This document shows positions 3,327 to 41,099 of a DNA stretch of 64,000 bases, in pieces. The stretch covers positions 83,651-147,650 of the forward strand of contig JAFUCZ010000030.1 in assembly GCA_017459425.1 (NCBI GenBank), read 5' to 3'. Source of the stretch: Bacilli bacterium (GTDB taxonomy: Bacteria > Bacillota_I > Bacilli_A > RF39 > UBA660). Position numbers and translations under genes: made by a program. Each line of letters begins with the position of its first letter. Position 1 is the first letter of the stretch. The notes under the pieces were generated by a model. That model was given only the letters and a program-made list of their open reading frames with translations. It was not told the origin of the DNA and ran no database searches.

Positions 3327-3334
3327 AGGTGATT

Positions 3335-5085: not shown

Positions 5086-5180
5086 AGATTAGTTAATATG
5101 AATAAAAAAATTACATATAATAATATAAAAGACTTGACGTACGCAAAAAAGTACATTATAATGCAAATAGAGGTGAAAAT

Positions 5181-5438: not shown

Positions 5439-5703
5439 TTATGTTATAAAATTTTCTAAAATGGCGGTAAAAGATAAAAAGAAATTGAAAAGTGCAGGAT
5501 TGGAAAATACTTGTAGAAAAATACTTGATCTAATGACTACTAATCCTTTTTGTTACCCACCTTCATATGAAAAACTGGTAGGAGATTTATCAGGTTTATA
5601 TTCGAGAAGAATAAATAGACAACACAGAATTGTTTATGAAGTTAATGAAGAAAAAAACGAAATACATATTATAAGAATGTGGACGCATTATGATAATGTT
5701 TAA
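5425..5703 (+). CDS. YoeB/Txe-family type II toxin
   Basis: The C-terminal RRINRQHRIVYEV...IIRMWTHY signature is present. The gene overlaps the antitoxin stop. Confidence 0.7.
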   Translation: MKNGNYVIKFSKMAVKDKKKLKSAGLENTCRKILDLMTTNPFCYPPSYEKLVGDLSGLYSRRINRQHRIVYEVNEEKNEIHIIRMWTHYDNV

Positions 5704-5771
5704 ACTCTATTAAATAGAGTTTTTTTGTCAAAAAAAATTAATATTCATATATTGTAACTAGGGGGTATTTT

Positions 5772-6692: not shown

Positions 6693-6774
6693 TTCATTTT
6701 ATGGATTATTCTTTTTTGTTATATTGACAATATAATGTTGTATGATATAATGAAAACCGAAAGAGGGTTATGGT

Positions 6775-7647: not shown

Positions 7648-7698
7648 TTCATTTTATGGATTATTCTTTTTTTCATATTATAAATTAGGAGGTGATTT

Positions 7699-8454: not shown

Positions 8455-8469
8455 TTTTGACTTTAAATT

Positions 8470-8690
8470 ATGAATATGCTAAAATATCTTTAGAAACGTT
8501 GATTGAGACATAGTTTATAGATTGTTTTTAAAGAGAGTTAGTGCTAGGTGAAAACTAATATAATGATTTATAAATTCCTACTCATGAGTAAAATGTAAAC
8601 ATTTTCGGGTAATGCCGTTATACTAATTAAGCAAAAGAAAGGATGGTACCGTCTATAAGACTCCTTGTATCGTTCTTTTTTTGCTTTTAA
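8470..8690 (+). promoter_or_regulatory. T-box riboswitch leader (proline specifier CCU likely)
   Basis: An AGAGA box and a specifier-like loop ...AAUUCCUAC... are present. The T-box motif AAAGGAUGGUACCG is followed by a terminator hairpin and a U-tract. Confidence 0.6.
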
Positions 8691-8700
8691 GGAGGAAAAT

Positions 8701-9984: not shown

Positions 9985-10021
9985 TTAAATTTAGTGTATA
10001 ATGATTGGGAGGGGATGAATT

Positions 10022-10357
10022 ATGGCAAAAGCATACTCTACCTTTGAAGGTAAAAAAGTTCGAAAAATTTATATTAATGATTGTTGGTATTTTTGCCTTA
10101 GTGATGTTGTGCATTGTATTACAAATTCTAAAGATTCAAAATTATATTTAAAAGATTTAAGACGAAGAAAACCAAATATAAAAGAAAAATGGAACTTACT
10201 TTGCCCTTTATATCCAATTCAAACTAAAGGTGGATATCAAAAATTAAAATGCGTAAATTATGATAGCTTGCAAATTCTTTTTGAAACTAGTAGAAGTGTA
10301 AAGAAAGAAAAATTCTTTAAGTGGGTTAGAAGAGTTAGTAAGCAAAAAAATGATTAA
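10022..10357 (+). CDS. Bro-N / phage antirepressor-like domain protein
   Basis: A 111-aa protein. The pattern FEGKKVRKIYINDCWYFCLSDVV is BRO-N-like. Confidence 0.45.
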   Translation: MAKAYSTFEGKKVRKIYINDCWYFCLSDVVHCITNSKDSKLYLKDLRRRKPNIKEKWNLLCPLYPIQTKGGYQKLKCVNYDSLQILFETSRSVKKEKFFKWVRRVSKQKND

Positions 10358-10391
10358 ACTACATGTGTAGTTTTTTCTTTAAGGAGTTAAT

Positions 10392-11219
10392 ATGGAATAT
10401 TATAAAGAAGTAGAAAGAAGTATTATAAAAAAGTATAGAAAAGAAATATGGTCTAAATTTGTTAAGGCAGTAAGTGATTATAAACTGATAGAAGAAAATG
10501 ATAATATTATGGTTTGTATTAGTGGTGGTAAGGATTCATTTTTAATGGCTAAATGTATAGAAGAATTAATAAAACACGGTAAATTTAAATTTAATGCACA
10601 TTATGTAGTAATGGATCCAGGATATAATCCTTTAAATAAAAAAAAGATTTTAGAAAATGCGAAAAAACTAAATATAAATATTGAAATGTTTGAAAGTAAT
10701 ATATTTGATGTAGTTAAGGATATCGAGGAAAGCCCATGCTATTTGTGTGCTAGGATGAGAAGAGGGTATTTATACAATAAGGCAAAAGAATTAAAATGCA
10801 ATAAAATTGCTTTAGGACATCATTTTGATGATGTGATTGAAACTACACTTTTGTCTATGTTTTACGGCAGTGAAGTTAAAACAATGCTTCCAAAACTTCA
10901 TAGCACAAATTATAAGGGTATTGAATTAATTAGACCTATGTATTTAATTCATGAACAAGACATTATTTCTTGGAAGAATTTTAACAAATTAAATTTCTTA
11001 AATTGCGCTTGTAGATTTACGGAAGATTATTCTTTAAATAAAACTGATAGTAAAAGAGAAGAAATAAAAAAATTAATTAAAGATATGAAAAAAATTAATA
11101 AAAATGTAGATCATAATATTTTTAAAAGTTTAGATAATATTAATTTAGATTGTGTACTTGGATATAATAAAAATAAAGAATACCATTCTTTTTTAGACGA
11201 GTATGATTTGGAGGATTAA
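10392..11219 (+). CDS. ttcA: tRNA 2-thiocytidine synthetase TtcA-family PP-loop ATPase
   Basis: A PP-loop CISGGKDS and CxxC pairs are present. Confidence 0.7.
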   Translation: MEYYKEVERSIIKKYRKEIWSKFVKAVSDYKLIEENDNIMVCISGGKDSFLMAKCIEELIKHGKFKFNAHYVVMDPGYNPLNKKKILENAKKLNINIEMFESNIFDVVKDIEESPCYLCARMRRGYLYNKAKELKCNKIALGHHFDDVIETTLLSMFYGSEVKTMLPKLHSTNYKGIELIRPMYLIHEQDIISWKNFNKLNFLNCACRFTEDYSLNKTDSKREEIKKLIKDMKKINKNVDHNIFKSLDNINLDCVLGYNKNKEYHSFLDEYDLED

Positions 11220-27065: not shown

Positions 27066-27224
27066 TTTTTAATTTGTTTATGATAAGTCTATTATATTAT
27101 ATATTGCCCTTATTTTCAATATTTTGGTAATGTTTTTTTTAAAAACTATTGACATATTTTGGTAATGTTTTTTTTAAAAACTTGTTCAGTAATTTACAAT
27201 ATTATGTCGGAAGGAGGGAGATTT

Positions 27225-28157
27225 ATGATTTTTAAAAGGATAACATTTAAATATGTTATGTATGAATGGTTAGAAGGTAGAAAGGGTAACATCAAGGAAT
27301 CAAGTTTCAACAAGTATATGTTCTGTATTGAAAAATATCTAGATCCGTATTTAGGAGAGTATGAATTTAAAAAGATAAAGGAGAAGAATATTTTCAATTT
27401 CTATGAAGAAGATGAAATAAATAAACTTAGTAATTCAACTAAGAATATATTATTGATAATTATTCAATCATGTATTAGTTATGGTGTTGAAAAAAAGTAT
27501 CGAAGAAACTCATTAGAATTGGATATTAAATTTCAAAAGAAAAGGAATGAAATTACTTACTTTACTCAAAAAGAACAAAATATAATCGAAGAACACATTA
27601 ATAAAAATATGAATATAAGAAATTTAACTATACTTTTTTCTTTATATACAGGTGTTAGAATTGGTGAATTGTGTGCTTTAAAAGGTACTGATATTGATTT
27701 TATTAATAATACTATAAGTATTGATAAAACTGTTTTGAGAGTAAAGAATCCAGAAGGTAAGCCTAAAACAAAACTAATTATTGGAAAACCAAAAACGAAA
27801 ACATCAATAAGGATTATACCAGCACCAGCATTTATAATAAATCATTTAAAGAAGTATATTAAAGATAAAAATGATTTTATTTTTACTGGTAATGATAAAC
27901 CAAAAGATCCGAGAACATTAGAAAAATATTTTTCTGAATTATTGGATAGATTAAACATTAAACAAATTAATTTTCATTCTTTAAGACATACTTTTGCGAC
28001 TAGGTTAAGAGAACAAAAAGTAGATATTAAAGTTATAAGTGAATTGCTGGGACATTCCTCTTGGAAATTTACACAAGACATATATGTTCATGCTTCATTT
28101 GAGTCAAAAAAGAACTCAATAAATATACTTGGTAAGTCAAGAAAGAAAAGTTCGTAG
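27225..28157 (+). CDS. tyrosine site-specific recombinase (phage-integrase family)
   Basis: The C-terminal HSLRHTFATRL...LGHSS...DIYVH carries the catalytic R/H/Y. The RBS GGAGGGAG is present. The stop codon lies inside site 1B. Confidence 0.8.
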   Translation: MIFKRITFKYVMYEWLEGRKGNIKESSFNKYMFCIEKYLDPYLGEYEFKKIKEKNIFNFYEEDEINKLSNSTKNILLIIIQSCISYGVEKKYRRNSLELDIKFQKKRNEITYFTQKEQNIIEEHINKNMNIRNLTILFSLYTGVRIGELCALKGTDIDFINNTISIDKTVLRVKNPEGKPKTKLIIGKPKTKTSIRIIPAPAFIINHLKKYIKDKNDFIFTGNDKPKDPRTLEKYFSELLDRLNIKQINFHSLRHTFATRLREQKVDIKVISELLGHSSWKFTQDIYVHASFESKKNSINILGKSRKKSS

Positions 28158-28318: not shown

Positions 28319-30799
28319 ATGAAAAAAATAACAGCGGCAAATATTAAAGAGTATATCCAAGAAATTGCAGATGCAATTCAAGAATTTAATCGTCAAATTG
28401 ATGCAATTAATAATCAAGAAGAAGAATATCGTGAAACAGGTGAATTTAAAATTGTAGACCTTGCTACTCATGAACGAGGAATATCTGGTGGTATGGGGAT
28501 AAGCAATGTTAACAATTATATAGATTCATGGAAAGAATATATTGAAAATGGTGGGAAAAATGTTGAAGAGGCAAAACAGAAGATAGAATATTTAACAAAA
28601 GTTCTAGAACTTATAGAAAATGATTCAAAATATGACTTAAAAAAAGAGAAGGTAGATAAAACCTTACAACAATTTAAAGAAAAGAAAGAGAAACTTGAAG
28701 AATTAATTAGTCAGTTAAGAAAAGAAATAAAATCATGTAATACAATTCTTAAAGATATTGCATTTACAAGTATTTTAAATAATCCAGAAGCAATGGGTAA
28801 AGTTATTGATGGACTTATTGCAAACGCAAACGAAGACTTGAAACAGAAAGAAGAAAAGAAAAAACAATTACTAGAAGAATTGGAACAAAAAGAAAAAGAT
28901 GAAAAATTATTATCTGAACTTTCATGTGGTGTTAGAAGTGAATATAACTTTACACCTTTTGGTAGGTTCAATCCTAAGAGCGTGGAATCATTTAGAGAAT
29001 ATTTATCAGAAAATAATTTATATGGACAATTAGAAAGCTTTATCAAAAGATTTGCAAATGATGATACATTAGAAGTTTTAAATTATTTAAAGAATGAACC
29101 AAATGGGGCATGGGAAAAATACTACAATGCATATCCAAATGAATTTAGAACATTGGCAAAGTATACATATGTTTTGATGCAAGCAAAAGCATCTTTGAAA
29201 ATACCACAAGATTATATTGATAAAACATGTGAGAACCAAGATGTTGAATTTGATGATAAAATATATTTTGGTGATCTTAACTTCATATCAAAAAAGGATT
29301 TGATAAAATATATTAAGAATATCACAAGTGAAAGTTTAGGTAAAGATAATATAGACAACTTTAATAGATTATGTAGTTTAAGTTATAATGATTTTTGCAA
29401 ATTAGTATCGAAAATAAATTTGGATACTGTAACATATGAAGAATGTTTACTATTATTTGAAATGGTAAAACCTATGGAGAGAACTTATCTTTTAGATTCA
29501 GAAGGAGAAAATTTTAGTAAAGCATTACAAAGTTACTATAAGCAAGAAAAAAGAAAAGAATATCCACATGATACAGGTCGCATTATTATCTCAAGAGATT
29601 TAGAGAAAATAAGAGAAAGAAGACCTTACATTAAGTCAGAATTATCACGAGTAGAAGATAGTATAGTTCAATCTCAATCATATATAAAATCATTAGAAAC
29701 TGGGGATAAAAAACATTTAATTGAATTGAATTTAAATGGATTTCAAATTAGAGAAGGTGTAATTCCAGTACCTGACAGTGTGGATTGGGCAATAGTTGGA
29801 ATAAATGGTGTTCATAATCGTATAGGTGTAAATCAAGAAGAATTTGATTCTATTAATAGTAAAATTAACGACTTCGAAAACTCTGAATATGGAAAATTAT
29901 TTGTTAAATATGTAAACGAGAATGGAGTCGACTTTGAAGAACCTTATGCACAATTATCAAAAATCGTAATAACATTTAATTCCAATATAAAACATGCTGA
30001 AGGTTTACTACGTTATGAAGAACGAACTGAAAAAGAAAAGTTTGAAAGTCAGATAAAAGAATTAGAAATAGAACTTGAAGAATTAAAAAATAGTGCAGAA
30101 GATAGAAAATTCACAAAGAAAAATGGCGAACTCGTTAAAGGAAAAGTTGGTAGATTTTTATTTAAAATCTTTAACAGAAAACAATACAAGAATAATATTG
30201 AACAAATAACAAATTCTGAAAAGAAAATCAACGAAGAAAAAGAAAGAATAATCGCTGAATCTCAAAGTCCAAGTAGTGTTGTTACTGCAAAGAAAGAACT
30301 TGAAAGATTGATACATGAAAGAGAAAATGCTATAACAAAAATTCTTAATTGCGATTTAGCTACTGCTGAAAAAATAGTTGAAGAACTTGAAAGTATTTCT
30401 CCTTATTCATTAACAGAATTCATGAGTGGTGATACACCTTTACAGAATAGTGAGAATGCTGAAAAAAATAGAGAATATCTTAATCTGTTGCAACGTAGGA
30501 AACAAATGAGTAGTGAAATTAATAGAGATAAATTAAATTACTTTGATTTAATAAAGAAATTGCTGAATGATTCAACACTACCTATTCATATTAGAAAAGA
30601 ATTAGAATTAATTATTTCTAGTGATGAAGTTCGTAGTATTGATGTTTCAAGGGAATCTGTAGCTTATGCCAGAGAATTAGAAAAACATTCATATGATCCA
30701 ACTCTAACGGATTCTATAAGAACAGGAATTATTGATCCAACTATGGATAGTGATGAAGCTGTAACAATATTGAACGAAACACAAGGAAAATCAAAATAA
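28319..30799 (+). CDS. large (826 aa) coiled-coil rich protein, function unknown
   Basis: Long K/E-rich heptad regions. No enzymatic motif recognised. Confidence 0.4.
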   Translation: MKKITAANIKEYIQEIADAIQEFNRQIDAINNQEEEYRETGEFKIVDLATHERGISGGMGISNVNNYIDSWKEYIENGGKNVEEAKQKIEYLTKVLELIENDSKYDLKKEKVDKTLQQFKEKKEKLEELISQLRKEIKSCNTILKDIAFTSILNNPEAMGKVIDGLIANANEDLKQKEEKKKQLLEELEQKEKDEKLLSELSCGVRSEYNFTPFGRFNPKSVESFREYLSENNLYGQLESFIKRFANDDTLEVLNYLKNEPNGAWEKYYNAYPNEFRTLAKYTYVLMQAKASLKIPQDYIDKTCENQDVEFDDKIYFGDLNFISKKDLIKYIKNITSESLGKDNIDNFNRLCSLSYNDFCKLVSKINLDTVTYEECLLLFEMVKPMERTYLLDSEGENFSKALQSYYKQEKRKEYPHDTGRIIISRDLEKIRERRPYIKSELSRVEDSIVQSQSYIKSLETGDKKHLIELNLNGFQIREGVIPVPDSVDWAIVGINGVHNRIGVNQEEFDSINSKINDFENSEYGKLFVKYVNENGVDFEEPYAQLSKIVITFNSNIKHAEGLLRYEERTEKEKFESQIKELEIELEELKNSAEDRKFTKKNGELVKGKVGRFLFKIFNRKQYKNNIEQITNSEKKINEEKERIIAESQSPSSVVTAKKELERLIHERENAITKILNCDLATAEKIVEELESISPYSLTEFMSGDTPLQNSENAEKNREYLNLLQRRKQMSSEINRDKLNYFDLIKKLLNDSTLPIHIRKELELIISSDEVRSIDVSRESVAYARELEKHSYDPTLTDSIRTGIIDPTMDSDEAVTILNETQGKSK

Positions 30800-30822: not shown

Positions 30823-30851
30823 GTTCGTAGAACTAACATAGTTCCACGAAC
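30823..30851. repeat. lox-like site 2A: GTTCGTAGAA-CTAACATAG-TTCCACGAAC + T7
   Basis: Same architecture. A-tract and T-tract flanks. Confidence 0.8.
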
Positions 30852-31018
30852 TTTTTTTCATGTCTAAATTGTACTATAAAATAAAGAAATATGCAATATT
30901 ATGGCAGTCTTTTTGTATATGCAATTGTAAACTTTTACATAATTTTTTCAAATTGTATTTTTTTATTATATTTAATTGGTTTATAATAAGAAAAATTGTA
31001 TAATTAAAAAAATAATAG
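30852..31018. promoter_or_regulatory. invertible-module candidate 2 (167 bp, non-coding, homologous to modules 3-5)
   Basis: Bounded by inverse sites 2A and 2B. Shares the ...TAAATTGTACTATAA...TATGCAATAT...TTGTAAACTTTTACAT... blocks. Confidence 0.55.
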
Positions 31019-31047
31019 GTTCGTGGAACTATGTTAGTTCTACGAAT
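31019..31047. repeat. lox-like site 2B: GTTCGTGGAA-CTATGTTAG-TTCTACGAAT (inverse of 2A including the arm variant)
   Basis: The centre is the reverse complement of 2A. The T-to-C arm variant is mirrored. Confidence 0.8.
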
Positions 31048-31088: not shown

Positions 31089-31541
31089 ATGGGATTGTTT
31101 GATATGCTTAATAAAAATGATATAAAAAAAAAATATTTATCGATTGGTGATAAAAGACTTGATGAAGAAGATATGCTAGAAAGAAAAGATTTATATGAAA
31201 TATTTAAGAAATATCAAGGATATGAAAAGACAATTGATTTATCAGATAACAAAGAAGTAAATAAAAAGATTTTAAGTTTGATGTCAGAACTATTCAATTT
31301 AAAAATTGTTTGCAAAAATTATAATGAATATGAAGATTTATATAATAATTTTAATGAAATAACAATTAATAAAATTAATACTTTAAATATCCTTGAATGT
31401 ATGGCTTTAATAACTTATATTCAAAGACAAGATTATTGGTCTGGTGGATATTCTTCGCCATATTTAAATAATACTAAAAATGGATTTATTCCACAAATAA
31501 TAAATAGAATAATTAGTTTATATGAAAGTAGAGGAAAATAG
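31089..31541 (+). CDS. MGLFDM-N-terminus family small protein
   Basis: Starts with MGLFDMLNK. RBS AGGAGG. Confidence 0.45.
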   Translation: MGLFDMLNKNDIKKKYLSIGDKRLDEEDMLERKDLYEIFKKYQGYEKTIDLSDNKEVNKKILSLMSELFNLKIVCKNYNEYEDLYNNFNEITINKINTLNILECMALITYIQRQDYWSGGYSSPYLNNTKNGFIPQIINRIISLYESRGK

Positions 31542-31543
31542 TT

Positions 31544-32332
31544 ATGAATAAAGATAAAGATAGTGTTATAAAATCAGGCAAAGTTCTTTTTACAATGGGT
31601 ATAATTTTTTCTGTATTATTATTTTTATTACTAATAGTAGCAATTAATGATTCGATTGGAGCAGTAATTTTAGTTATATTATTATATGTTATCATATCAC
31701 CATTATTAATTCTGGGAGTATGTATGAAAAAAAATCCTGAAAAATATATAAAAACATCTATTTCGTATATCTATGGTGCTGATAGTACAATATATTTAAA
31801 TAAAGGATATACTTATGATATTGCTTGCAATTTATATTGTAAAAGAACAGGTAAAACAAATGAAGAATTAACTGAGTCTGATGAAGATGAAATATGGCAT
31901 TGTTCGTATGATGATTTTACTTATTTAATGGCTTGGATTATTGAAAATGGTTATTATCAATATTCTTCTCAACACTATGGTGAGGATGGAGAAAAAGGTT
32001 GGATGAAAACTATTGATAAAATTAAGAATAGAACTTATGAGGCTACTGATTTCTTTCTTTTAACAGATGGAGTTTTATTCAAGGATGAAATATCAGATCA
32101 AATTGTTGATTTTATACAGGAATATTCAAATAGTTCACTATGTAATGATGGGCAATTTTATCTTAAAGAGGAAAATGTAATAGGTGGTTTGGAAGTAGAT
32201 GTACAAGACTTTGCACGAAAACAACTTAATTCTGATATTTATGGCTTTAAATTCAAATGGGATGATTATGATAAATTCAAAGTTTATATAGATACTGCGT
32301 ATAAGAAATATTTAGATAAGGTAGGAAAATAG
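31544..32332 (+). CDS. membrane-anchored hypothetical protein
   Basis: An N-terminal TM helix pair. Confidence 0.4.
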   Translation: MNKDKDSVIKSGKVLFTMGIIFSVLLFLLLIVAINDSIGAVILVILLYVIISPLLILGVCMKKNPEKYIKTSISYIYGADSTIYLNKGYTYDIACNLYCKRTGKTNEELTESDEDEIWHCSYDDFTYLMAWIIENGYYQYSSQHYGEDGEKGWMKTIDKIKNRTYEATDFFLLTDGVLFKDEISDQIVDFIQEYSNSSLCNDGQFYLKEENVIGGLEVDVQDFARKQLNSDIYGFKFKWDDYDKFKVYIDTAYKKYLDKVGK

Positions 32333-32334
32333 TT

Positions 32335-32682
32335 ATGGGATTGTTTGATATGTTTAAAAGTAAAGGAATATATTCATCATTGACTAATGAACAAAAGCAA
32401 GAATTGATTAAGAACGGAGAATTAAAACCATTATATTTAATTGGATTAAGATTTGGTGGCTCTGATAAAATTGATAATATGGTTTATGCTCCATCACAAG
32501 CAGTTGAACAAAAAAATAAGATAGATGATGAATTAGAAAACTATATGAAACAAGGTAGAACTGTTAAAGGATATATGTGCATTCCTTCATATAAAGGAAA
32601 ATGTAGTATTCCATCTAAATTAAAAATACAAGCATTTATTGATGGAACAGAACAATTTGTTAGAAATATAGATATTTGGTAG
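32335..32682 (+). CDS. MGLFDM-N-terminus family small protein
   Basis: Starts with MGLFDMFKSK. Confidence 0.45.
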   Translation: MGLFDMFKSKGIYSSLTNEQKQELIKNGELKPLYLIGLRFGGSDKIDNMVYAPSQAVEQKNKIDDELENYMKQGRTVKGYMCIPSYKGKCSIPSKLKIQAFIDGTEQFVRNIDIW

Positions 32683-32691
32683 AGGTGCTTT

Positions 32692-33366
32692 ATGAAAAAA
32701 ATAGGAAAAATTATTTTTTGGATTATATGGATAGGAATACTTTTATTTTTACATATAGGAATGGCAGCAGGTTCTGAGTATAATGATTCCTCAACAAAAA
32801 CTGTTGGAATAGTTGGAATTGTTATCTGGTGGGTATTGACTATTGGAATAACTGTAATAGTTTTGAAAATTCAAGATAAAAAAGAAGAAAAAAAGAAAAT
32901 CGAATATAAAGAAAAAAATATTGAAACAATTGAGTATGAAGATGACAGATATGGAAAAGTTAGTTTTAAACACAATCTAGAGAAACATATTTTATCAGCT
33001 GATATAAAAAATGTTAATTTTGCTGGAAAAAATTTAGAGGCTAGTATTTTAAATATTGACGATAAGACTGATTTAAAAACTATCTTTGATAATTTAAAGA
33101 AATATAGTGATAATTCAAAATCAATTAAAGAAAGAATTTATCCTGAACTTGCTGGCACTTTAAAAAAAGTAGATAATTATGATAAAGATGGAAATTTATT
33201 TGAACCAAGTGAACAATTTTTAAGAGATAATTTTGAATTTAGTACAATAGTGATTCAAGATTCGAAGACTATAAGCTTGTGGGGAAGTTGGGATTCTCCT
33301 TATGAACAAGATTATTCAATTAATTACAATTCTAGCGATGATACAATTGAAGTTGAAAGTTTATAA
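32692..33366 (+). CDS. membrane protein, hypothetical
   Basis: Two N-terminal TM helices. Confidence 0.4.
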   Translation: MKKIGKIIFWIIWIGILLFLHIGMAAGSEYNDSSTKTVGIVGIVIWWVLTIGITVIVLKIQDKKEEKKKIEYKEKNIETIEYEDDRYGKVSFKHNLEKHILSADIKNVNFAGKNLEASILNIDDKTDLKTIFDNLKKYSDNSKSIKERIYPELAGTLKKVDNYDKDGNLFEPSEQFLRDNFEFSTIVIQDSKTISLWGSWDSPYEQDYSINYNSSDDTIEVESL

Positions 33367-33384
33367 TGTGAATGAGGTTAAAAA

Positions 33385-33840
33385 ATGGGATTATTTGATA
33401 TGTTTAAGAAAAATAAAACAAATAATAATATAAAGCCACAAATTTATATATCACAAGTTGAATATGATGGTATACCAATTGAAATAGAGTTTAACATAGA
33501 TGAGAGTAAAGAACATCTATCAGAAGATTATGCCGTATTACAAAACGAAGGTATAGATAAAATAATAAAAGACCGTTTTATACCATGGTTTAAGACTGAT
33601 AAATTTAAAGATAGAGATGATAATTTAATTTATGAAGGTTTAAAGATTTATGATATAGTATACTGCTATGGTATGATTGATGCTCGATATTCACCTACAC
33701 AACAACAAGAAATGGCTGGGCAATTTACATTTTTCTTTGAAAGTGGAAATGAATATACATCAGATATGTTGGAATCAACAGCAATGGAAATTTATGTATT
33801 AAATGGAAAAATAGTTAAAGTAGATGGATACGAAGTTTAG
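33385..33840 (+). CDS. MGLFDM-N-terminus family small protein
   Basis: Starts with MGLFDMFKKNK. Confidence 0.45.
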   Translation: MGLFDMFKKNKTNNNIKPQIYISQVEYDGIPIEIEFNIDESKEHLSEDYAVLQNEGIDKIIKDRFIPWFKTDKFKDRDDNLIYEGLKIYDIVYCYGMIDARYSPTQQQEMAGQFTFFFESGNEYTSDMLESTAMEIYVLNGKIVKVDGYEV

Positions 33841-33848
33841 GAGGAAAT

Positions 33849-34445
33849 ATGGGATTATTTAGTATGTTTAAGAAAGAAAGTAATGAAAAACCAGATATAT
33901 CAGAAATAGCATATGATTATGATGGGTATGATATAGCATTTGAAAGTGGAAAAACAGAACCAAAATTATATTCTGAAATAAATAATATTGTTACTAATAA
34001 TAATTTTGATATTAATAATATAAGTGAGTATAAGAATTTAAATATTAATTCTGATTATGACACATTTCTAACATTTTATGATTCTTGGTTAGAAGAACTA
34101 AAAAATAATAATTATGTTATACATTTGGATAATTATACTAATATAACTGACTTTGCCAACAAAATAAATCAATTATTAGATAGAATAAATTCCAAAAAAA
34201 AGATAGATGTTGATTTAATTACAAATGAATATAAGGAAGAATTGAAAAAATATTCTTTTATGGGTAATGATATAGAAGAAAATTTTAATTACGATGTACT
34301 TGAGGCAAATATAGTAGCACAGGAATTAAGAAAAATTGGATACGAGTTAATAAATTTCTTTATTGGATATGATAATAATGATAAAACTATTATTAAAATT
34401 GATGATATAGAAAAACTAAAAGAAATAGAAACTAAGATTAAATAA
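33849..34445 (+). CDS. MGLF(S)M-N-terminus family protein
   Basis: Starts with MGLFSMFKKE. Confidence 0.45.
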   Translation: MGLFSMFKKESNEKPDISEIAYDYDGYDIAFESGKTEPKLYSEINNIVTNNNFDINNISEYKNLNINSDYDTFLTFYDSWLEELKNNNYVIHLDNYTNITDFANKINQLLDRINSKKKIDVDLITNEYKEELKKYSFMGNDIEENFNYDVLEANIVAQELRKIGYELINFFIGYDNNDKTIIKIDDIEKLKEIETKIK

Positions 34446-34461
34446 TGGAGGAGTTGTTAAT

Positions 34462-34905
34462 ATGACAAATAAAACTAATTTAGGATTAATTATTGAAAAT
34501 TTAGATTTAGATGCTAATTTACAAGAATTTATAGAAAATGTAGTTGAGGAGAATTTTAGAGAATTAGATCAACCACTTTATGATGAACAAGGAAATTTTA
34601 TATATAATAAAGCACTTGTAGAATTCTTAAAGTCTGATGAAAAAATCAAATCATTATCTAATGATGAATTTAAATTAGTACTTGATATGTTGGTAAAAGA
34701 TATACTTCATAGAATAGAAGCGAAGGGAAATTCTCATATAAGAGCTACTGAAGGTGCTTATGATGAAGAAAATAGAAGTTATTATGGTAGTTCTGAAAGT
34801 GCATATTGGCATTTATTAGAACAATATTTAGACGATTTTAATTATAATAAAAGTATTTCAGATTTCTATGCTGAATATTTAGAAGAAAATGAAAAAAAGA
34901 AGTAA
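34462..34905 (+). CDS. hypothetical acidic protein
   Basis: An ORF with an RBS GGAGGAG. Confidence 0.35.
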   Translation: MTNKTNLGLIIENLDLDANLQEFIENVVEENFRELDQPLYDEQGNFIYNKALVEFLKSDEKIKSLSNDEFKLVLDMLVKDILHRIEAKGNSHIRATEGAYDEENRSYYGSSESAYWHLLEQYLDDFNYNKSISDFYAEYLEENEKKK

Positions 34906-34928
34906 AAGAATAAAGGTGGAGATTATAG

Positions 34929-35645
34929 ATGTTAAACTATAAAAAAATAATATGTAGTATAGCTATATGCTTTATGTGTTTTATTGGTATGAACTCAGTA
35001 ATGGCAGCCGAAGTGACTACTGAGAAACTTGCTGAAATTTTAAGAGAAAGTGATTTGTTGGATGCATTATATTTTGAAGATTCAAAAATTACATTTGAAA
35101 CAACGGACACTACACTTAAAATACATGAAATAAATGGATTTTATGATGATGAAATTGATGATGTTGAAACTGATACGATTTATACATTGATTGATAATAT
35201 CTTAACTTATGAATATCTTGATATGGAAAATCCATCATACGCACAAATTGTTCCTGATGAATTATGGACAGATGAGGTAATAAAAGCAATTTATACTCTA
35301 AAAGGGCATGAAAATGAAACAATAAATTATGAAAATCCAGAATTTATACTTTATGAGAAATTTGAAACTGCTGGGCAACCGCAAGGAACAAAAAGATTAA
35401 AAATAGATTTGAGTAAAATTGAAGACTTAAATCCAGAAACCACATCTGTTGATGATGATAATCAATCTTCTAATGTAGTTGAATCAACAGAAAATAGTGT
35501 TTCGAATAATGTTGATAACAAGAAAACATCTAGTACAACAGAAAATCCTAAAACAGGGGTTTATGGTGGAAGTATATTATTAGTTGTAAGTGCAATTGTA
35601 GGCTATATAGTTATCAGAAGGAAAAATAAATTCAAAAATATATAA
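34929..35645 (+). CDS. secreted cell-wall-anchored protein (signal peptide; C-terminal NPKTG sorting motif + TM + basic tail)
   Basis: An N-terminal signal, then ...TENPKTGVYGGSILLVVSAIVGYIVIRRKNK. Confidence 0.5.
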   Translation: MLNYKKIICSIAICFMCFIGMNSVMAAEVTTEKLAEILRESDLLDALYFEDSKITFETTDTTLKIHEINGFYDDEIDDVETDTIYTLIDNILTYEYLDMENPSYAQIVPDELWTDEVIKAIYTLKGHENETINYENPEFILYEKFETAGQPQGTKRLKIDLSKIEDLNPETTSVDDDNQSSNVVESTENSVSNNVDNKKTSSTTENPKTGVYGGSILLVVSAIVGYIVIRRKNKFKNI

Positions 35646-35653
35646 TAAAAAAA

Positions 35654-35682
35654 GTTCGTAGAAGTACCATACTTCCACGAAC
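35654..35682. repeat. lox-like site 3A: GTTCGTAGAA-GTACCATAC-TTCCACGAAC + T5
   Basis: Same architecture. Confidence 0.8.
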
Positions 35683-35872
35683 TTTTTACTTACACCTAAA
35701 TTATATTATAATTCGTGGATTTATGCAATATAATAATAGTTTTTTGATATATAATAATGTCAAATTTTACATTTTTTTAGAAAAAATTATTGTTTTTATA
35801 TATAAACTTTATAAATTGTCATAATACTGGATTTTATAAGTATTAACACCAATTTAATTGTAGAAAATAAAG
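35683..35872. promoter_or_regulatory. invertible-module candidate 3 (190 bp)
   Basis: Contains TAAATTATATTATAA, TATGCAATAT and the palindromic ATGTCAAATTTTACAT. Confidence 0.55.
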
Positions 35873-35901
35873 GTTCGTAGAAGTATGGTACTTCTACGAA
35901 C
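35873..35901. repeat. lox-like site 3B: GTTCGTAGAA-GTATGGTAC-TTCTACGAAC (inverse of 3A)
   Basis: The centre is the reverse complement of 3A. Confidence 0.8.
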
Positions 35902-35947
35902 AATAGATAATATTATAAGTTATCGGTATTGTATGAGGAGGAAATTT

Positions 35948-36244
35948 ATGAACAATAATCAAGATTATCAAACAACACAAATGTCAAATTTAGGTGTTAA
36001 TGCTTCTGGTAACCCATTACAAATGAGAGGTTTAATGAATGTTTTAAATTCTAGTTATCACGAAGGTATAACACTAGAAGAACTACAAGTAGCAGTTGGA
36101 ACAGCAATTCAGCAACAATTACAACAATCACTACAAGGTATGGATCAAGCATCAGCACAAACAGTTATGTCATTTTTACAAGGAGTAGATTATACTTTAA
36201 CACAAGATTATAATAAGACTGTTCGTTCAGATAGAACATTATAA
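35948..36244 (+). CDS. hypothetical Q-rich small protein
   Basis: ATG after the RBS GAGGAGG. The upstream track extension runs through site 3B and is unlikely. Confidence 0.4.
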   Translation: MNNNQDYQTTQMSNLGVNASGNPLQMRGLMNVLNSSYHEGITLEELQVAVGTAIQQQLQQSLQGMDQASAQTVMSFLQGVDYTLTQDYNKTVRSDRTL

Positions 36245-36260
36245 GAATTAGGAGTTATTT

Positions 36261-36626
36261 ATGATTTACAATATTTATTATAATACTTTAAATAAAGAAT
36301 TAAAGAAGGCAATTTATTCAAAATCAATTTCGATTGAAGATTTAAAAAAAGTGTATGAAAACTTAAAAATAAAAAATAACAAAAAAAGGAAAACTATTAA
36401 TTTAGTTATGATAATAGTAATTGTTATATTTGGTATTTTGGGTATTCCTACATTTATAAATTCAAACAATCCTGAATTTACTAAATTTATGTTATTATTA
36501 TTAATACCTTTAATCGTAGTTATTTATGGAATTGTTTATTTTACACAAGTAGGATTAATAAAAATCCAATTTAATAATGCAATAAAGAAGAATTATCCTG
36601 AATTAGTGAATGAATTAAAATTGTAA
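36261..36626 (+). CDS. small membrane protein
   Basis: Two TM helices. Confidence 0.4.
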   Translation: MIYNIYYNTLNKELKKAIYSKSISIEDLKKVYENLKIKNNKKRKTINLVMIIVIVIFGILGIPTFINSNNPEFTKFMLLLLIPLIVVIYGIVYFTQVGLIKIQFNNAIKKNYPELVNELKL

Positions 36627-36639
36627 ATAGGAGGTTTAT

Positions 36640-36942
36640 ATGGGAAATAATGAAAAATTAGACCAAATGGTGCATGATGAAATGTATAAGAATTTGAATA
36701 GAACAGAAGAATTACTTAGTCACTTATATGAAATGATAAAAAATGATCCAGAAAATAAAGAATTAACTAGAATTTTTGAAGGAGTTCTTTATATTGCACA
36801 AGGTCAAGTAAGAACTAATGCAATTGTTAGTGAAACATATTTTGGTAAGGGAATTAAGGAATATTCAATGAAGATTGCAAAAAAAAGAGAAGAAAACTTG
36901 AAAAGTTTATCTGAACATGCCAAAAAAGGAAGAACAAAGTAA
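36640..36942 (+). CDS. hypothetical protein
   Basis: RBS AGGAGG. Confidence 0.35.
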   Translation: MGNNEKLDQMVHDEMYKNLNRTEELLSHLYEMIKNDPENKELTRIFEGVLYIAQGQVRTNAIVSETYFGKGIKEYSMKIAKKREENLKSLSEHAKKGRTK

Positions 36943-36957
36943 GTTGGAGGAAATAAT

Positions 36958-37506
36958 ATGCAAGAAGAATTAAAAATGTTAGAACAAAAAAAGACAGAGG
37001 CTTTAAGTAAGTCATTGACACTTCATTCACAAGCAAGTGATAAAGAAGCTAAGATGGAAAATTTTATTCAGAAATGGTTAAATGATGAATCAGAATTAAA
37101 TAATGAAAGTATGCAACAATTACTTGATTCTGTTAATGAACAAGTTGCTGAATTAAAAAGACAAGCAGAAGAGTCATGGAAAGAATATAAAAAATTAGAT
37201 AGTGAAATATCATTAAAACAAAATGCAGTTTATAGTGTAAGAACAAATTTAGGAATGAGTCCTGATGAAATTGTTATAACAGGAGGAGTACTATCTTCTA
37301 ATGCAAGTGAATCACATTTAATTGGAAGAAGTAAAACACCAGAAGAATTAGAAATAGATAGGTTAAATGCTCTTGCAATGATTAGAGAAAAAGTTGCTAA
37401 AAAAGAAATTACATTAGCTCATGCATCTAAGTTAAAAAATGATGTTAATATTGCTTATGGATATGCACCACAACAACAAGAAAATCAAAATGGTATGTCT
37501 AAATAA
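36958..37506 (+). CDS. coiled-coil hypothetical protein
   Basis: RBS GGAGG. Heptad-rich. Confidence 0.35.
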   Translation: MQEELKMLEQKKTEALSKSLTLHSQASDKEAKMENFIQKWLNDESELNNESMQQLLDSVNEQVAELKRQAEESWKEYKKLDSEISLKQNAVYSVRTNLGMSPDEIVITGGVLSSNASESHLIGRSKTPEELEIDRLNALAMIREKVAKKEITLAHASKLKNDVNIAYGYAPQQQENQNGMSK

Positions 37507-37620
37507 ATTATGGATAGTAAAAAAATACTATCTTTTTAATTTCTTTATCAAAAATTAAAAAAATATAGTATAATAAGTAAGTAAATTAGTGTTTTTTAAT
37601 TTTTGAGGGAGAAAAGTGTT

Positions 37621-38538
37621 ATGAGAAAAATTATAACAAGTTATATTAATCCTGATATGGATGGTATAGCTTTAATGTATGCTTATTGTGAGTATTTAAG
37701 AAAAAAAGGTGAAGATGCCTATTATTATTTTGAAGGAACATACAAAAAAGAAGTTGGAATTGTTTTGGATACATTTAATATATCATTAAATCCAATAGAT
37801 AAAGTATTAGATGATGATAAGATAATTTTAGTTGATACAAATTATATTCAAGAAATTCCTAATACAATAACTGAGAATAAGATTGTAGAAGTAATAGATC
37901 ATCACAAAAGAGAACAATGGATAGATGAATATAATGTAAAAGCACAAATTGAGCCTCTCGGTTCAGCTTCAACAATAGTTGCTGAAAGATTTAAAAATAG
38001 TAATTTAGAGATTTCAAAAGAATCAGCAATTTTATTGTATTATGGTATTATATCAAATACAATGAACTTAAAAATCAAATTAACAAATCAAAGAGATATT
38101 GATATGGCAAATTGGTTAAAAAGTTTAGTACCCGAAATCACAGACAGTATTACTAATGAGATTTTTGTAAAAAAATCTGAAATTGGTAACAATTTAAGGG
38201 AAGAAATGGAAGTAGAATTTAAAGATCAATTTATGACTATATCATGGTCTATGGGACAATTAGAAGTTGCAAATGTTGAAGACTTTTTAGAAAAATATGA
38301 AGATAGTATTAGAAATGTACTAGAAACTGTTAGTAAAGAAAAAGAAGTTGAATATATGTCTGTTAATTGTATGGATATAATTAATGGTTATAGTATTATT
38401 GTCGCATTAAATGATAAAACAGCAAATTTAATTTCAAAATCAATTGGAGTGAACTTTATTGAATTGAAAGCAAAGATTAATGAACTTATAAGTAGAAAAG
38501 AAATTGTGAAAGTAATCAGAAATATATATAGTAAATAA
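37621..38538 (+). CDS. DHH-family phosphoesterase (family II inorganic pyrophosphatase-like)
   Basis: An N-terminal NPDMDG motif, a DHH motif VIDHHK and a GSASTIV motif are present. Confidence 0.6.
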   Translation: MRKIITSYINPDMDGIALMYAYCEYLRKKGEDAYYYFEGTYKKEVGIVLDTFNISLNPIDKVLDDDKIILVDTNYIQEIPNTITENKIVEVIDHHKREQWIDEYNVKAQIEPLGSASTIVAERFKNSNLEISKESAILLYYGIISNTMNLKIKLTNQRDIDMANWLKSLVPEITDSITNEIFVKKSEIGNNLREEMEVEFKDQFMTISWSMGQLEVANVEDFLEKYEDSIRNVLETVSKEKEVEYMSVNCMDIINGYSIIVALNDKTANLISKSIGVNFIELKAKINELISRKEIVKVIRNIYSK

Positions 38539-38558
38539 TTATGATTTAGGAGGTTTTT

Positions 38559-39119
38559 ATGATATATATAACAAGACACGGACAAACAAATTGGAATGTA
38601 CAAAAGAAAGTAATGGGTAGATGTGATGAACCATTAAACGAAACGGGATTAAGTCAAGCAGAAGAAACAAGAAATAACTTAATGAATACAGATATTGATT
38701 TGATTATTTGTTCACCATTAAAAAGAGCAAGACAAACAGCAGAGATAATTAATAGAGATAGAAATATTCCTATAATATATGATGAAAGAATTATCGAAAG
38801 AGATTTCGGTGAATTTGAAGGAATGGAAACAAAGAATTTTGATTTCCATGGTTATTGGAATTATTATAAGAATATGCAATTTGAGAGTGCTGAAAATATT
38901 CAAGTATTCTTTAAAAGAGTATATGATTTTTTAGAAGATATTACTGAAAAATATAAAGATAAAAATGTATTATTGGTTGCGCATGGTGGAATTAGTATCC
39001 CAGTAGCATGTTTCTTTAATGGAAATATACCAGAAGAATCACTCGTTGATGCAGGATTAGTTTTAGGTAATTGTCAAGTTGCATCATATACAGTGAATAA
39101 TAAAAAAATAAACAAGTAA
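38559..39119 (+). CDS. histidine phosphatase (phosphoglycerate-mutase-like) family protein
   Basis: An N-terminal RHGQTNWN catalytic motif is present. AHGG lies near the C-terminus. Confidence 0.7.
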   Translation: MIYITRHGQTNWNVQKKVMGRCDEPLNETGLSQAEETRNNLMNTDIDLIICSPLKRARQTAEIINRDRNIPIIYDERIIERDFGEFEGMETKNFDFHGYWNYYKNMQFESAENIQVFFKRVYDFLEDITEKYKDKNVLLVAHGGISIPVACFFNGNIPEESLVDAGLVLGNCQVASYTVNNKKINK

Positions 39120-39132
39120 TTACATAAAAAAG

Positions 39133-39161
39133 GTTCGTAGAACTCTATAACTTCTACGAAC
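39133..39161. repeat. lox-like site 4A: GTTCGTAGAA-CTCTATAAC-TTCTACGAAC + T6
   Basis: Same architecture. Confidence 0.8.
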
Positions 39162-39342
39162 TTTTTTCTATGATTAAATTATACTATAAGATATTGTTTT
39201 ATGCAATATAGCAAATAATTTTTTATTAATGAGTTATGTCAAATTTTACATTTTTTAATTCTAATTTGTATATATTTTTTTTAAATCATGGAATTCTATT
39301 GTGTACCAAATGAAAAAGGAATTTATAACATTATTAAAATAG
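39162..39342. promoter_or_regulatory. invertible-module candidate 4 (181 bp)
   Basis: Contains TAAATTATACTATAA, TATGCAATAT and ATGTCAAATTTTACAT. Confidence 0.55.
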
Positions 39343-39371
39343 GTTCGTAGAAGTTATAGAGTTCTACGAAT
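39343..39371. repeat. lox-like site 4B: GTTCGTAGAA-GTTATAGAG-TTCTACGAAT (inverse of 4A)
   Basis: The centre is the reverse complement of 4A. Confidence 0.8.
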
Positions 39372-39405
39372 AATGATTAGTAAATATATTTTGTGGAGGT
39401 AAAAT

Positions 39406-40431
39406 ATGAGAAAAAAGATATTTATTATGATTTTAGGAATAGTAATGTTTATTCCAATAGCACACGCAAAAGATGTTACAAAAGAGGAATTTGTTAGTAA
39501 TTTACAAAAATATGTAGAAGAATTTAATTCAGGTTCACCTACATATGAAGAATATCCATATGGTTCTGGAATTAGAAAAAATATGAAACAAATAATACTC
39601 ACAAATAATGATGAAGGAATTAATTTAAAAAATGGTGATTATGAAACTAATGTTGTATTCAATGAAACAGAGCAAACTGTAAATGGTATAGCAATGAATA
39701 TAGATAATATTAATGATAATTCTACTGAAGTTGAAAAAAAATTATATTATGAAAATATTATGTATAAATATATTCAATTACAAATGATAGGCTTATCTAT
39801 AATTGATTCGAAAGGAATAGATAAAGAATTAGGTTTATCGTCATATGATGTTTATGGTTTAAGAACAGGGACAGATACAATACTTAAAGATCTTTCATTT
39901 AACTTTAGTATTGATTTATCTAAAGTGGAGGTAATAGATGATGATGGATATGAATATCTTGTTCCAAAACTATCAATCGAAAAATTAAGTGATACTAAAT
40001 TAAGGATTTATTTTGATTTTGAAAGATATGATGAAGAACGATTTGATTGGGATAATATACCGATTGATTTATTAATTTTTGAAGATTCATCTTCTGTTTC
40101 AACAAATAGTATTACGCAAATTGAAGATGGATATGTTGATGTAAATATATTGCCAGATAAAGAATACATGTTTAAAGGTGTTGCATATCATCCAACATTA
40201 TTAGGTTATTTGCGATTAAGTGAGCCAGTATATTATAATGTACCATCGCAACAAGATAATCAAGCGACAGATAATAATAATGATAATAATGCTACTAATA
40301 CACAAAAAACTATATCTAATACAATAGACAATCCAAAAACAGGTGTGAAAAACTATATGACAGTTGGTATATTAGCAATCTTAATATTAGGAATAACATA
40401 CAAATTATATAAGAAAAAGGAAAGTATTTAA
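39406..40431 (+). CDS. secreted cell-wall-anchored protein (signal peptide; C-terminal NPKTG motif + TM + basic tail)
   Basis: An N-terminal signal, then ...IDNPKTGVKNYMTVGILAILILGITYKLYKKKESI. Confidence 0.5.
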   Translation: MRKKIFIMILGIVMFIPIAHAKDVTKEEFVSNLQKYVEEFNSGSPTYEEYPYGSGIRKNMKQIILTNNDEGINLKNGDYETNVVFNETEQTVNGIAMNIDNINDNSTEVEKKLYYENIMYKYIQLQMIGLSIIDSKGIDKELGLSSYDVYGLRTGTDTILKDLSFNFSIDLSKVEVIDDDGYEYLVPKLSIEKLSDTKLRIYFDFERYDEERFDWDNIPIDLLIFEDSSSVSTNSITQIEDGYVDVNILPDKEYMFKGVAYHPTLLGYLRLSEPVYYNVPSQQDNQATDNNNDNNATNTQKTISNTIDNPKTGVKNYMTVGILAILILGITYKLYKKKESI

Positions 40432-40442
40432 GGAGGACGATT

Positions 40443-41099
40443 ATGGGATTATTTGATATGTTTAAGAAAAAAAAGGTAGAACAAAAATCAAATCTACCTG
40501 AGAACAAATATTATAAAGGAAATGATATTTTTAAAGATGATGAGGTAAAGGGTAATGAAATATCAATTAGAATTATAAAGAGTATTGAAATACCTGGACA
40601 TTCTAATCTTTATGAATGTACTGTCCAATATGGAATACCAAGTGCACTGATTACAGATGCTTGGGAAAATGAAGATTTACGCTTTTTTGAAAAATTAATT
40701 ATGGAGTTTGATAAAAATGAAATGATTAATAATCCTGATTATGCTAAATTTGTTTTAACAAAATTATTAAGAAGGGAAAGAGTAAGAGAATTACACGACA
40801 TTGAATTTGGTTTAATCGATGGAAAGAAAAATGGAAATTATATTGGTTCTGTTTCAAAAAATAATGGTAATTTATCTATTACAATGAATGATGAAATAGG
40901 AACAGTAATAGAAACATTACCAGCAACAAAAAAGCTTCAAGAAAATTATAAAGAATATATATCTGAAAAAGAGCAAGTACAAAGAAATATAGACGAAAGC
41001 ACATCTACAAGCAGAAAAGAAAGAATTGAATATTTAAAACAAGAACTAGCAAATCTAGAAAAAAGAGAAGAAGAATATCAGAGTTCTAAAAATAAATAA
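40443..41099 (+). CDS. MGLFDM-N-terminus family protein
   Basis: Starts with MGLFDMFKKKK. Confidence 0.45.
   Translation: MGLFDMFKKKKVEQKSNLPENKYYKGNDIFKDDEVKGNEISIRIIKSIEIPGHSNLYECTVQYGIPSALITDAWENEDLRFFEKLIMEFDKNEMINNPDYAKFVLTKLLRRERVRELHDIEFGLIDGKKNGNYIGSVSKNNGNLSITMNDEIGTVIETLPATKKLQENYKEYISEKEQVQRNIDESTSTSRKERIEYLKQELANLEKREEEYQSSKNK

Follow-up and report, generated by a model that had tools for sequence, protein, structure and literature searches.

A stretch of DNA 64 kb in length from a Bacilli bacterium of the UBA660 lineage (contig JAFUCZ010000030.1, positions 83,651 to 147,650; 25.1% G+C), hereafter called the window, contains five genes whose products share an N-terminal peptide of about nine residues, hereafter called the tag. 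Exact protein matching placed the window in a metagenome-assembled genome labelled Bacilli bacterium, with the proteins MBQ9181837-52 (locus tags IJ134_04315-04395). The tagged proteins were designated M1 to M5, their untagged transmembrane (TM) partners T1 and T2, and one further untagged member of the array X. All five tagged genes are located on the plus strand, encoding M1 (31089..31541; 150 amino acids, aa), M2 (32335..32682; 115 aa), M3 (33385..33840; 151 aa), M4 (33849..34445; 198 aa), and M5 (40443..41099; 218 aa), and they represent five of the ten genes of two operons (31089-35645 and 39406-41099). The proteins start with MGLFDMLNK (M1, encoded by 31089-31115), MGLFDMFKS (M2), MGLFDMFKK (M3 and M5), and MGLFSMFKK (M4), giving the overall pattern MGLF[DS]M[FL][KN][KS]. 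A preliminary description of the window had pointed out the common N-terminus of the genes at 31089, 32335, 33385, 33849, and 40443, which was confirmed by the results below, and had given the length of the proteins as 150-220 aa, which is corrected here to 115-218 aa.

The DNA pattern ATGGGATTRTTTGATATGTTTAA, searched with up to three mismatches, gave exactly five matches in the window, all on the plus strand, and each of them was the ATG of an open reading frame (ORF). The matches at 32335, 33385, and 40443 contained no mismatch, whereas that at 31089 contained one and that at 33849 contained two. The number of matches expected from shuffled sequences was 0.01, and none of 100 shuffles reached five. 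A Shine-Dalgarno-like sequence (GGAGG, GAGG, or AGGAA) was present 6-10 nucleotides (nt) upstream of each tagged ORF. No further copy of the tag was found when the whole 64 kb was searched in six frames with a relaxed peptide pattern, and none of the remaining 66 ORFs in the window with 90 aa or more carries it. The conserved DNA mentioned in the preliminary description was observed for approximately 27 nt of the coding start, to which nucleotide conservation is confined, but nothing was conserved upstream of the five starts. The same codon was used in 45 of 54 pairwise comparisons among the five tags, compared with 35.1 expected. Once the peptide is given, codon bias at 25% GC explains most of this DNA identity.

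The bodies that follow the tag were compared after removal of the first ten residues. Every pairwise BLASTP comparison among the five gave an E value of at least 1.2, and in the multiple alignment of the five proteins the invariant columns were residues M1, G2, L3, F4, and M6 of the tag together with one glycine that matched by chance. Because the bodies are not alignable, the term paralogous, as used in the preliminary description, applies at most to the tag. Paralogy of the five proteins is thus not supported, and they appear instead to be unrelated bodies with a common anchor. Pfam searches with the five proteins gave sub-threshold matches only: M1 matched DUF6508, M2 matched Endonuclea_NS_2 in its C-terminal part, and M4 matched DUF6630. 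Scans of the five proteins and their neighbours against NCBIfam, PADLOC, and PHROGs gave nothing useful.

M1, M3, and M5 carry orphan bodies. The homologues of M1 were confined to closely related contigs, and the copies on contigs L120, L162, and L155 start with MGLFDMFKKK or MGLFGMFKKK. The match of M1 to DUF6508 (E 0.0097, sub-threshold) was dropped, as it was not reproduced with the homologue on L155. M3 had no match in Pfam, NCBIfam, PADLOC, or the PDB; its homologues (n=22) start with various tags, including MGLFD[MAIK]FKK, MSFFDKLKK, and MSLFAKLKR. M5, which has a coiled-coil-like C-terminus, had only four detectable homologues and no family match in Pfam, NCBIfam, or PADLOC. Its PDB matches were confined to the coiled-coil region and resembled noise, and PDB sequence searches with M1, M3, M5, and an 826-aa protein encoded upstream of the array gave nothing useful. 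M1, M3, and M5 are, on sequence comparison, members of small and apparently orphan families.

The body of M4 was tentatively assigned with Pfam as a divergent DUF6630 domain. M4 itself scored 20 bits against the DUF6630 profile (cut-off 27; E 9.3e-4), and this profile was matched by 15 of the 26 sampled proteins among its 49 detected homologues, with a best E value of 5.1e-6. One homologue (P0129) carries PF20335 in the precomputed table, and another (P0135) is fused to SMI1_KNR4/SUKH_6 immunity-type domains. The AlphaFold model of M4 had a predicted local distance difference test score (pLDDT) of 92 and a predicted template-modelling score (pTM) of 0.85, with residues 1-10 below 50. No match at E <0.1 was obtained for the model with Foldseek against the PDB and BFVD, and a literature search for DUF6630 found no publication.

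The body of M2 was assigned from its model, Foldseek, and a family profile as a domain related to EsaD and Endonuclea_NS_2. The AlphaFold model (pLDDT 88; residues 1-10 averaging 49) was matched by Foldseek to the nuclease domain of EsaD, a type VII toxin of S. aureus (8gun_A; E 1.8e-5, TM-score 0.69, root-mean-square deviation 1.5 Å, 93 columns), and also to Sda1, and by this comparison it has the beta-beta-alpha-metal fold. The M2 family profile aligned the sequence YLIPLRFGG..N with HLIARMFGG..N of EsaD, so that M2 and EsaD share the motif xLIxxxFGG....N including the metal-binding Asn. In EsaD the His of this motif is the catalytic residue, H528 (PMC9616950). Its place is taken by Tyr34 in M2, and the corresponding column in 141 relatives of M2 contained Y in 69, L in 26, H in only 19, and F in 16, whereas the metal-binding Asn was retained in 137 of the 141. 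M2 also differs from EsaD (also known as EssD) in that the N-terminal third of the nuclease domain is absent. The Pfam profile Endonuclea_NS_2 covered M2 only with its positions 59-131 of 132 (20.9 bits, below the cut-off of 27). In addition, the EsaD domain is the C-terminus of a secreted toxin, whereas M2 is a stand-alone protein of 115 aa with a predicted membrane tag. M2 is therefore predicted to be a catalytically degenerate EsaD-like domain, of a family that mostly lacks the general base, without the N-terminal part of the nuclease domain. The family comprises 170 representatives at 50% identity (E <=0.001). Its domain occurs stand-alone, with signal peptides, or fused, in the last case as the C-terminal module of multidomain proteins of other organisms with SUFU, DUF7832 plus DUF6985, or DUF6882.

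The occurrence of the tag outside the window was analysed with a degenerate pattern in species-representative genomes and with an AT-rich pattern in metagenome contigs, the latter giving at least 71 loci. The list from the species-representative genomes was dominated by one EIIA orthologue of Collinsella and shows breadth, not a census. After translation of the matches and clustering of the bodies, the exact start MGLFDMFK was found on at least 25 unrelated body clusters in many phyla. Among these tagged proteins, Pfam identified PTS_EIIA_1 (E 1.5e-44; Collinsella and AT-rich Firmicutes, with the exact start MGLFDMFKKK), MinE (E 4e-26), Imm33 (E 5.9e-33), Imm48 (E 6e-11), Tdi1_C plus SMI1_KNR4 (SUKH), TerB, Rhodanese, DUF4178, DUF4428, DUF6935, DUF6985, and DUF4299. 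The MinE protein of one metagenome contig (L143) starts with MGLFDMFKKKNSSDVAKDRLKLLL, in which MGLFDMFKKK is identical. The preliminary description had asked whether the start is absent outside this locus or is simply the conserved N-terminus of a well-characterised family. The tag is widespread elsewhere, and the N-terminus is indeed conserved within each family, including the orthologues of the five proteins from other samples, but the families are domains of unknown function (DUFs) or orphans. In GC-rich Collinsella, Azospirillum, and Sphaerotilus the tag peptide is encoded by quite different codons, which indicates that selection acts on the protein.

A profile of 84 tagged proteins from the families of M2, M3, and M4, which are unrelated to one another, gave the consensus MG[LI]F[DNS]x[FL]KKK. 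Position 1 is M, position 2 is G in 86% and otherwise S, position 3 is L, I, or F, position 4 is F in 95%, and position 5 is D, N, or S. Position 6 is free (K, M, I, F, or R), followed by F or L at position 7, K or R at position 8, K at position 9, and K or N at position 10. The constant hydrophobic positions 3, 4, and 7 fall on one helical face, and the hydrophobic moment of the five tags over residues 2-9 was 0.51-0.62; the same calculation over residues 2-11 gave 0.50 for E. coli Crr and 0.78 for Vipp1. The tag is followed by indel-rich polar linkers of variable length, and in the tagged members of the M2 family a conserved body residue was located at position 27-64, with one outlier at 13. 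The tag also appears separate from the fold, residues 1-10 being of low confidence in the AlphaFold models of both M4 and M2. In some homologues the place of the tag is taken by TM helices: the M3 homologue P0155 has a TM hairpin where the tag would be, and three proteins with the M2 domain (P0189, P0266, and P0287) have four TM helices instead of it. The flank charges of all four predict that the body is cytoplasmic.

These features resemble those of helices for which membrane anchoring has been established by experiment. Residues 2-12 of MinE form a membrane-targeting sequence, of which L3, L4, F6, and F7 insert (PMC5473585). In E. coli this sequence, MALLDFFLSRKK, is likewise at the extreme N-terminus and has two hydrophobic pairs around an Asp followed by basic residues, so that L3 L4 D5 F6 F7 of MinE is in register with L3 F4 D5 M6 F7 of the tag. 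The MinE helix is sequestered and is freed on contact with MinD, whereas the tag has a flexible linker and unrelated bodies and gives no sign of regulated exposure. The amphipathic helix at the N-terminus of EIIA-Glc (Crr) mediates its membrane association and can be exchanged for heterologous amphipathic helices (PMC6123446). The order of anchor helix, linker, and independently folded core is the same as that predicted for the tagged proteins, although the EIIA-Glc helix has approximately 16-18 residues, compared with approximately 9-10 conserved residues in the tag. A third example is helix alpha0 of Vipp1/IM30, a member of the PspA family, whose peptide MGLFDRLGRVV... was assayed as a membrane-binding helix on liposomes (PMC11919686). 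This helix (MGLFDRLGRVVRANLN...) is identical to the tag in the first five residues, but it is much longer and is part of an oligomerising ESCRT-III-like protein.

Taken together, the tag is probably a short, portable N-terminal amphipathic helix that tethers proteins to the membrane on its cytoplasmic side, a reading to which we assign a probability of roughly 0.6. Membrane binding and location at the cytoplasmic face are inferred here from analogy and comparative anatomy. Residues L3, F4, and F7 (i, i+1, i+4) would make up the hydrophobic side of the helix, by which it enters the bilayer, and the lysines after it would contact anionic lipid head groups. The variable polar, low-complexity linker would join the helix to an independently folded body, and soluble cytoplasmic domains might in this way be held reversibly at the inner leaflet. 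Rather than a new signal, the tag would most likely be an anchor of a known kind that recurs on accessory proteins unrelated to one another. A membrane-association helix was among the possibilities named in the preliminary description, and it is the one best supported, by the same start on MinE and PTS EIIA, the unstructured tag in the AlphaFold models, and the TM hairpins present in its place in some homologues. Two other kinds of N-terminal signal were rejected. Lipidation of Gly2 of the N-myristoylation type would need an N-myristoyltransferase, which to our knowledge bacteria lack, and a prepilin-type leader is contradicted by the lack of a hydrophobic stretch after G-F.

Several observations weigh against the anchor. 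The helix would be only about 8 residues long, and the hydrophobic moment of the tag drops over a 10-residue window. The topology of the TM-bearing homologues was derived solely from hydropathy and the positive-inside rule. Among the 150 listed representatives of the M2 family, 14 have signal-peptide, lipoprotein, or TM-like N-termini, so that the M2 domain probably works outside the cytoplasm in some lineages, and 47 have no obvious N-terminal feature, which indicates that the anchor is not obligatory. Against the immunity function considered below, none of the five proteins matched a curated immunity family in Pfam or NCBIfam, PADLOC gave no match, and no toxin gene was recognised beside the array.

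Docking on a protein in place of lipid is improbable. The tag would then be a partner-recognition peptide for one shared protein, such as T1/T2, a chaperone, a protease, or a transport component. This would fit the alternation of tagged genes with genes for membrane proteins (M1-T1 and M2-T2), the occurrence of the M2-T2 pair alone among housekeeping genes on contig L168, and the identity of three of the five tags over nine residues. Against it, MinE, EIIA, TerB, rhodanese, and other tagged proteins in distant phyla cannot share one partner, only the hydrophobic and basic pattern is kept within families, and M3, M4, and M5 have no adjacent T-type gene.

A role of the tag at the DNA level is improbable to the same degree. 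In this case the conserved 21-27 nt would be a recombination handle, as the preliminary description had proposed, acting as microhomology by which bodies are swapped behind a fixed ribosome-binding site and start codon. Comparison of contigs revealed three alleles at the M4 slot: M4 itself, a different tagged gene of 185 aa (L176 and L188), and an untagged DUF6572 gene (L169). The identity of L176 and L188 to the window runs through the ribosome-binding site and the tag of M4 and stops after codon 7-9, where the 185-aa body begins; on L168 the homology begins 1 nt before the ATG of M2 and ends 45 nt into M3. Some cassette breakpoints thus coincide with the tag, the synonymous codon identity given above is modestly higher than expected, and a precedent exists in the tandem esaG and tipC immunity genes, whose recombination is driven by homology blocks (10.1101/2022.01.07.475358). 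However, two tagged cassettes would show homology through the tag wherever the crossover lay, and the untagged gene that replaces M4 on L169 was exchanged at the same slot with a break before the ATG. Moreover, the peptide is kept with different codons in GC-rich genomes, and 21-27 nt is short for RecA-dependent exchange. Recombination at the tag is at most a by-product.

Export is still harder to sustain and is considered quite unlikely. The tag would here serve as a sorting signal for a non-classical or type VII-like route or for membrane vesicles, to which the signal-peptide, lipoprotein, or TM-like N-termini of 14 of the 150 listed M2-family representatives and the sortase-type surface proteins encoded in the same operons could be related. 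In the tag, 4-5 hydrophobic residues precede a sequence rich in K, N, and E, with no hydrophobic core of at least 10 residues, no twin-arginine motif, and no lipobox. Within the M2 family, peak hydropathy is far lower in the tagged members than in those with signal peptides. The identical tag is present on the cytoplasmic proteins MinE and EIIA, and in the TM-anchored homologues the predicted location of the body is cytoplasmic. The genes scanned gave no match to an LXG or WXG domain, the rest of the window not having been scanned for type VII secretion genes, and no ORF in the window is long enough for an EssC-type ATPase, the longest among the ORFs of at least 90 aa encoding 826 aa. The export signal suggested in the preliminary description is not supported.

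A very unlikely explanation is that the tag is a leader for expression or turnover, which would favour translation initiation through A/T-rich, unstructured mRNA or would mark the protein for degradation or processing, but would not affect localisation. The start is indeed rich in A/T and in lysine, and a membrane-associated protease has been reported to clip the N-terminal helix of EIIA-Glc in enterics (PMC6123446). AT-rich starts are near-universal in a 25% GC genome, yet within the window the peptide is found only on these five proteins, and GC-rich genomes retain the aromatic and hydrophobic pattern of positions 3, 4, and 7 while using different codons. Chance or an annotation artefact (codon bias, mis-called starts) can be practically dismissed: for a given peptide, codon bias does account for most of the identity at the nucleotide level, but five matches were found against 0.01 expected, all at ORF starts with a Shine-Dalgarno sequence, and the tag is conserved in orthologues.

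The other genes of the two operons encode membrane and surface proteins and one small protein. T1 (31544..32332, plus strand; 262 aa), the untagged partner of M1, has an N-terminal TM hairpin and a C-terminal domain predicted to be cytoplasmic from hydropathy and the positive flank after the last TM helix. T2 (32692..33366, plus strand; 224 aa), the conserved partner of M2, has two TM helices and a C-terminal domain likewise predicted to be cytoplasmic (flank charges +3 / -1 / +3). The design of T1 and T2, a TM hairpin with a predicted cytoplasmic domain, is that of the TM-bearing homologues of the tagged proteins. X (34462..34905, plus strand; 147 aa) is an untagged ORF that has no Pfam or NCBIfam match and adjoins M4 also on L155 and L169. 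The last gene of operon 1 (34929..35645, plus strand) encodes a predicted surface protein of 238 aa with a signal peptide, a C-terminal NPKTG, a hydrophobic stretch, and a basic tail, and with a weak match to Rumino_NPXTG (E 0.017). The first gene of operon 3 (39406..40431, plus strand) encodes a predicted surface protein of 341 aa with a signal peptide and a C-terminal NPKTG anchor (...DNPKTGVKNYMTVGILAILILGITYKLYKKKESI). Each operon carrying tagged genes thus contains one predicted surface protein of the NPXTG-variant sortase type (34929-35645 and 39406-40431). We propose that M1-M5 are co-expressed with T1, T2, and the two NPKTG-type surface proteins.

Inverted pairs of GTTCGTAGAA-type sites were found around these operons. 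The sites have a lox/FRT-like form, GGTTCGTAGAA[CG]T-6 nt-[AG][CG]TTCTACGAAC, and constitute five pairs (27036-27069/28146-28179, 30824-30856/31014-31046, 35654-35686/35869-35901, 39134-39174/39330-39370, and 41163-41223/41338-41398). The spacers differ among the pairs (TATATCAC, TAACATAG, TACCATAC, TCTATAAC, and TACAATAC) and are reverse-complementary within each pair. The first pair, two perfectly complementary sites of 34 nt, encloses a tyrosine recombinase gene (27159..28157, plus strand; Pfam Phage_integrase, E 6.2e-29). Two of the others delimit candidate invertible segments before the operons with tagged genes: S1 before operon 1 (30824..31046; 33-nt arms with 94% complementarity, separated by 157 nt), whose spacer TAACATAG is reverse-complemented in the partner site, and S3 before operon 3 (39134..39370; 41-nt arms with 88% complementarity, separated by 155 nt). 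Internal sequence is common to all four short segments, each of which precedes an operon on the plus strand, an arrangement that makes them candidates for an invertible-promoter layout. The sequence suggests five independently invertible segments that would be served by one tyrosine recombinase, with its gene enclosed by the first pair. In each pair the left site directly follows a gene end, lies between A and T tracts, and could also act as a terminator.

The opposite orientation of the switches was sought in three other assemblies of the strain, all of which matched the window, and a scan of the region for sigma-70 promoters and terminators was no better than shuffles. The contig is represented in the metagenomes ERZ28019087, ERZ28653772, and SRR12529340. 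An independent assembly of the strain (L193; Logan SRR12529340) has a contig that starts inside S1 at window position 30935. Heterogeneous reads at an invertible region would lead to such a break, but it is no proof of inversion. Inside the first segment, a perfect direct repeat of 29 nt (ATATTTTGGTAATGTTTTTTTTAAAAACT; 27119-27147 and 27154-27182, spacing 35) lies upstream of and overlaps the recombinase start, and it could represent an operator or promoter duplication.

The gene for the 826-aa protein (28319-30799), which is rich in coiled coils, is located between the recombinase segment and S1. The sole match in the PADLOC and PHROGs scans was that of this protein to LmuB, which is probably a coiled-coil artefact; its other matches were weak and of coiled-coil-repeat type, and no toxin domain was found in it. 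On L169 an unrelated gene of 567 aa (172-1875) replaces it, with a lox-like site as the left boundary and with homology resuming at window position 30785, approximately 15 nt before the stop codon. The 826-aa gene is accordingly a variable cassette as well, with the sites as its boundaries. L169 also lacks the DHH-family and histidine-phosphatase genes with which operon 2 ends (37603-39119); on this contig, the equivalent of the gene at 36958-37506 runs straight into the S3 site region.

The composition of the array varied among contigs beyond the M4 slot. L162 has no T1, and in L120 another gene stands in its place. L155 carries an array (3169-10426) consisting of an M1-like gene, a gene for a 2-TM protein with DUF7832 (E 2.6e-13) at the position of T1, a tagged DUF6985 gene, M4, and X. 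This array is cargo of an element with a phage-type integrase, a helix-turn-helix repressor, and an MvaI/BcnI restriction endonuclease, and no lox-like sites were found at it. DUF7832, DUF6985, and the M2 domain are encoded by separate genes in these arrays and are fused in one TM-anchored protein elsewhere.

The bodies may represent accessory immunity- or defence-type modules at the membrane, a reading that we hold tentatively and at a little short of even odds. Parked at the membrane, they would meet incoming toxins or phage components at the point of entry. The reading is based on M4 and M2 homologues in which SUKH or SUFU is fused, the occurrence of the tag on proteins with Imm33, Imm48, and Tdi1-SUKH, the turnover of cassettes among strains, and their carriage on a mobile element. 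The immunity-like array seen in the preliminary description is partly supported by these features, but not by any curated immunity family or nearby toxin gene. Strings of esaG or tipC genes and the AID and rAID-1 clusters of Bacteroidales resemble the array in that small, divergent, strain-variable genes are arranged in strings, and rAID-1 clusters have in addition a tyrosine recombinase and repeated sites nearby (10.1101/471110). In contrast to orphan-immunity arrays, no cognate toxin or secretion system was seen among the genes scanned, and no curated immunity family is represented among the five. The recombinase and co-directional genes of the rAID-1 comparison are present here, but the repeated sites are at operon boundaries and not between cassettes: rAID-1 sites flank cassettes, whereas those of the window are inverted pairs around segments of approximately 115-180 nt at operon starts. 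The lineages also differ, rAID-1 being known from Bacteroidales and the window being from a low-GC metagenome-assembled genome of Bacilli.

A more far-reaching version, which we consider unlikely, is that the tag marks an undescribed class of immunity or defence proteins docked at the inner leaflet (Imm33, Imm48, SUKH/Tdi1, DUF6985, and DUF6630), in which the M2 family would mimic nuclease toxins of the EsaD type with a dead half-domain. The repertoire would in this Bacilli lineage be switched operon by operon by one recombinase acting on lox-like pairs with spacers that differ from pair to pair. M2, having the beta-beta-alpha finger and C-terminal sheet with His replaced by Tyr, could then neutralise toxins by competing for substrate or by complementing an N-terminal fragment of the toxin.

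In summary, the shared start of these proteins appears to be an anchor, and shared starts of this kind should not be taken for paralogy or for a secretion signal. Such starts could be used to predict the peripheral membrane association of many uncharacterised small proteins. The M2 family, an EsaD-like domain that is widespread and in most members has lost the catalytic His, is directly testable. The tag on immunity-type domains, together with the TM-anchored versions, suggests, but does not prove, that some immunity or defence proteins of Firmicutes act on the inner side of the membrane and, if true, this would be a useful organising principle.

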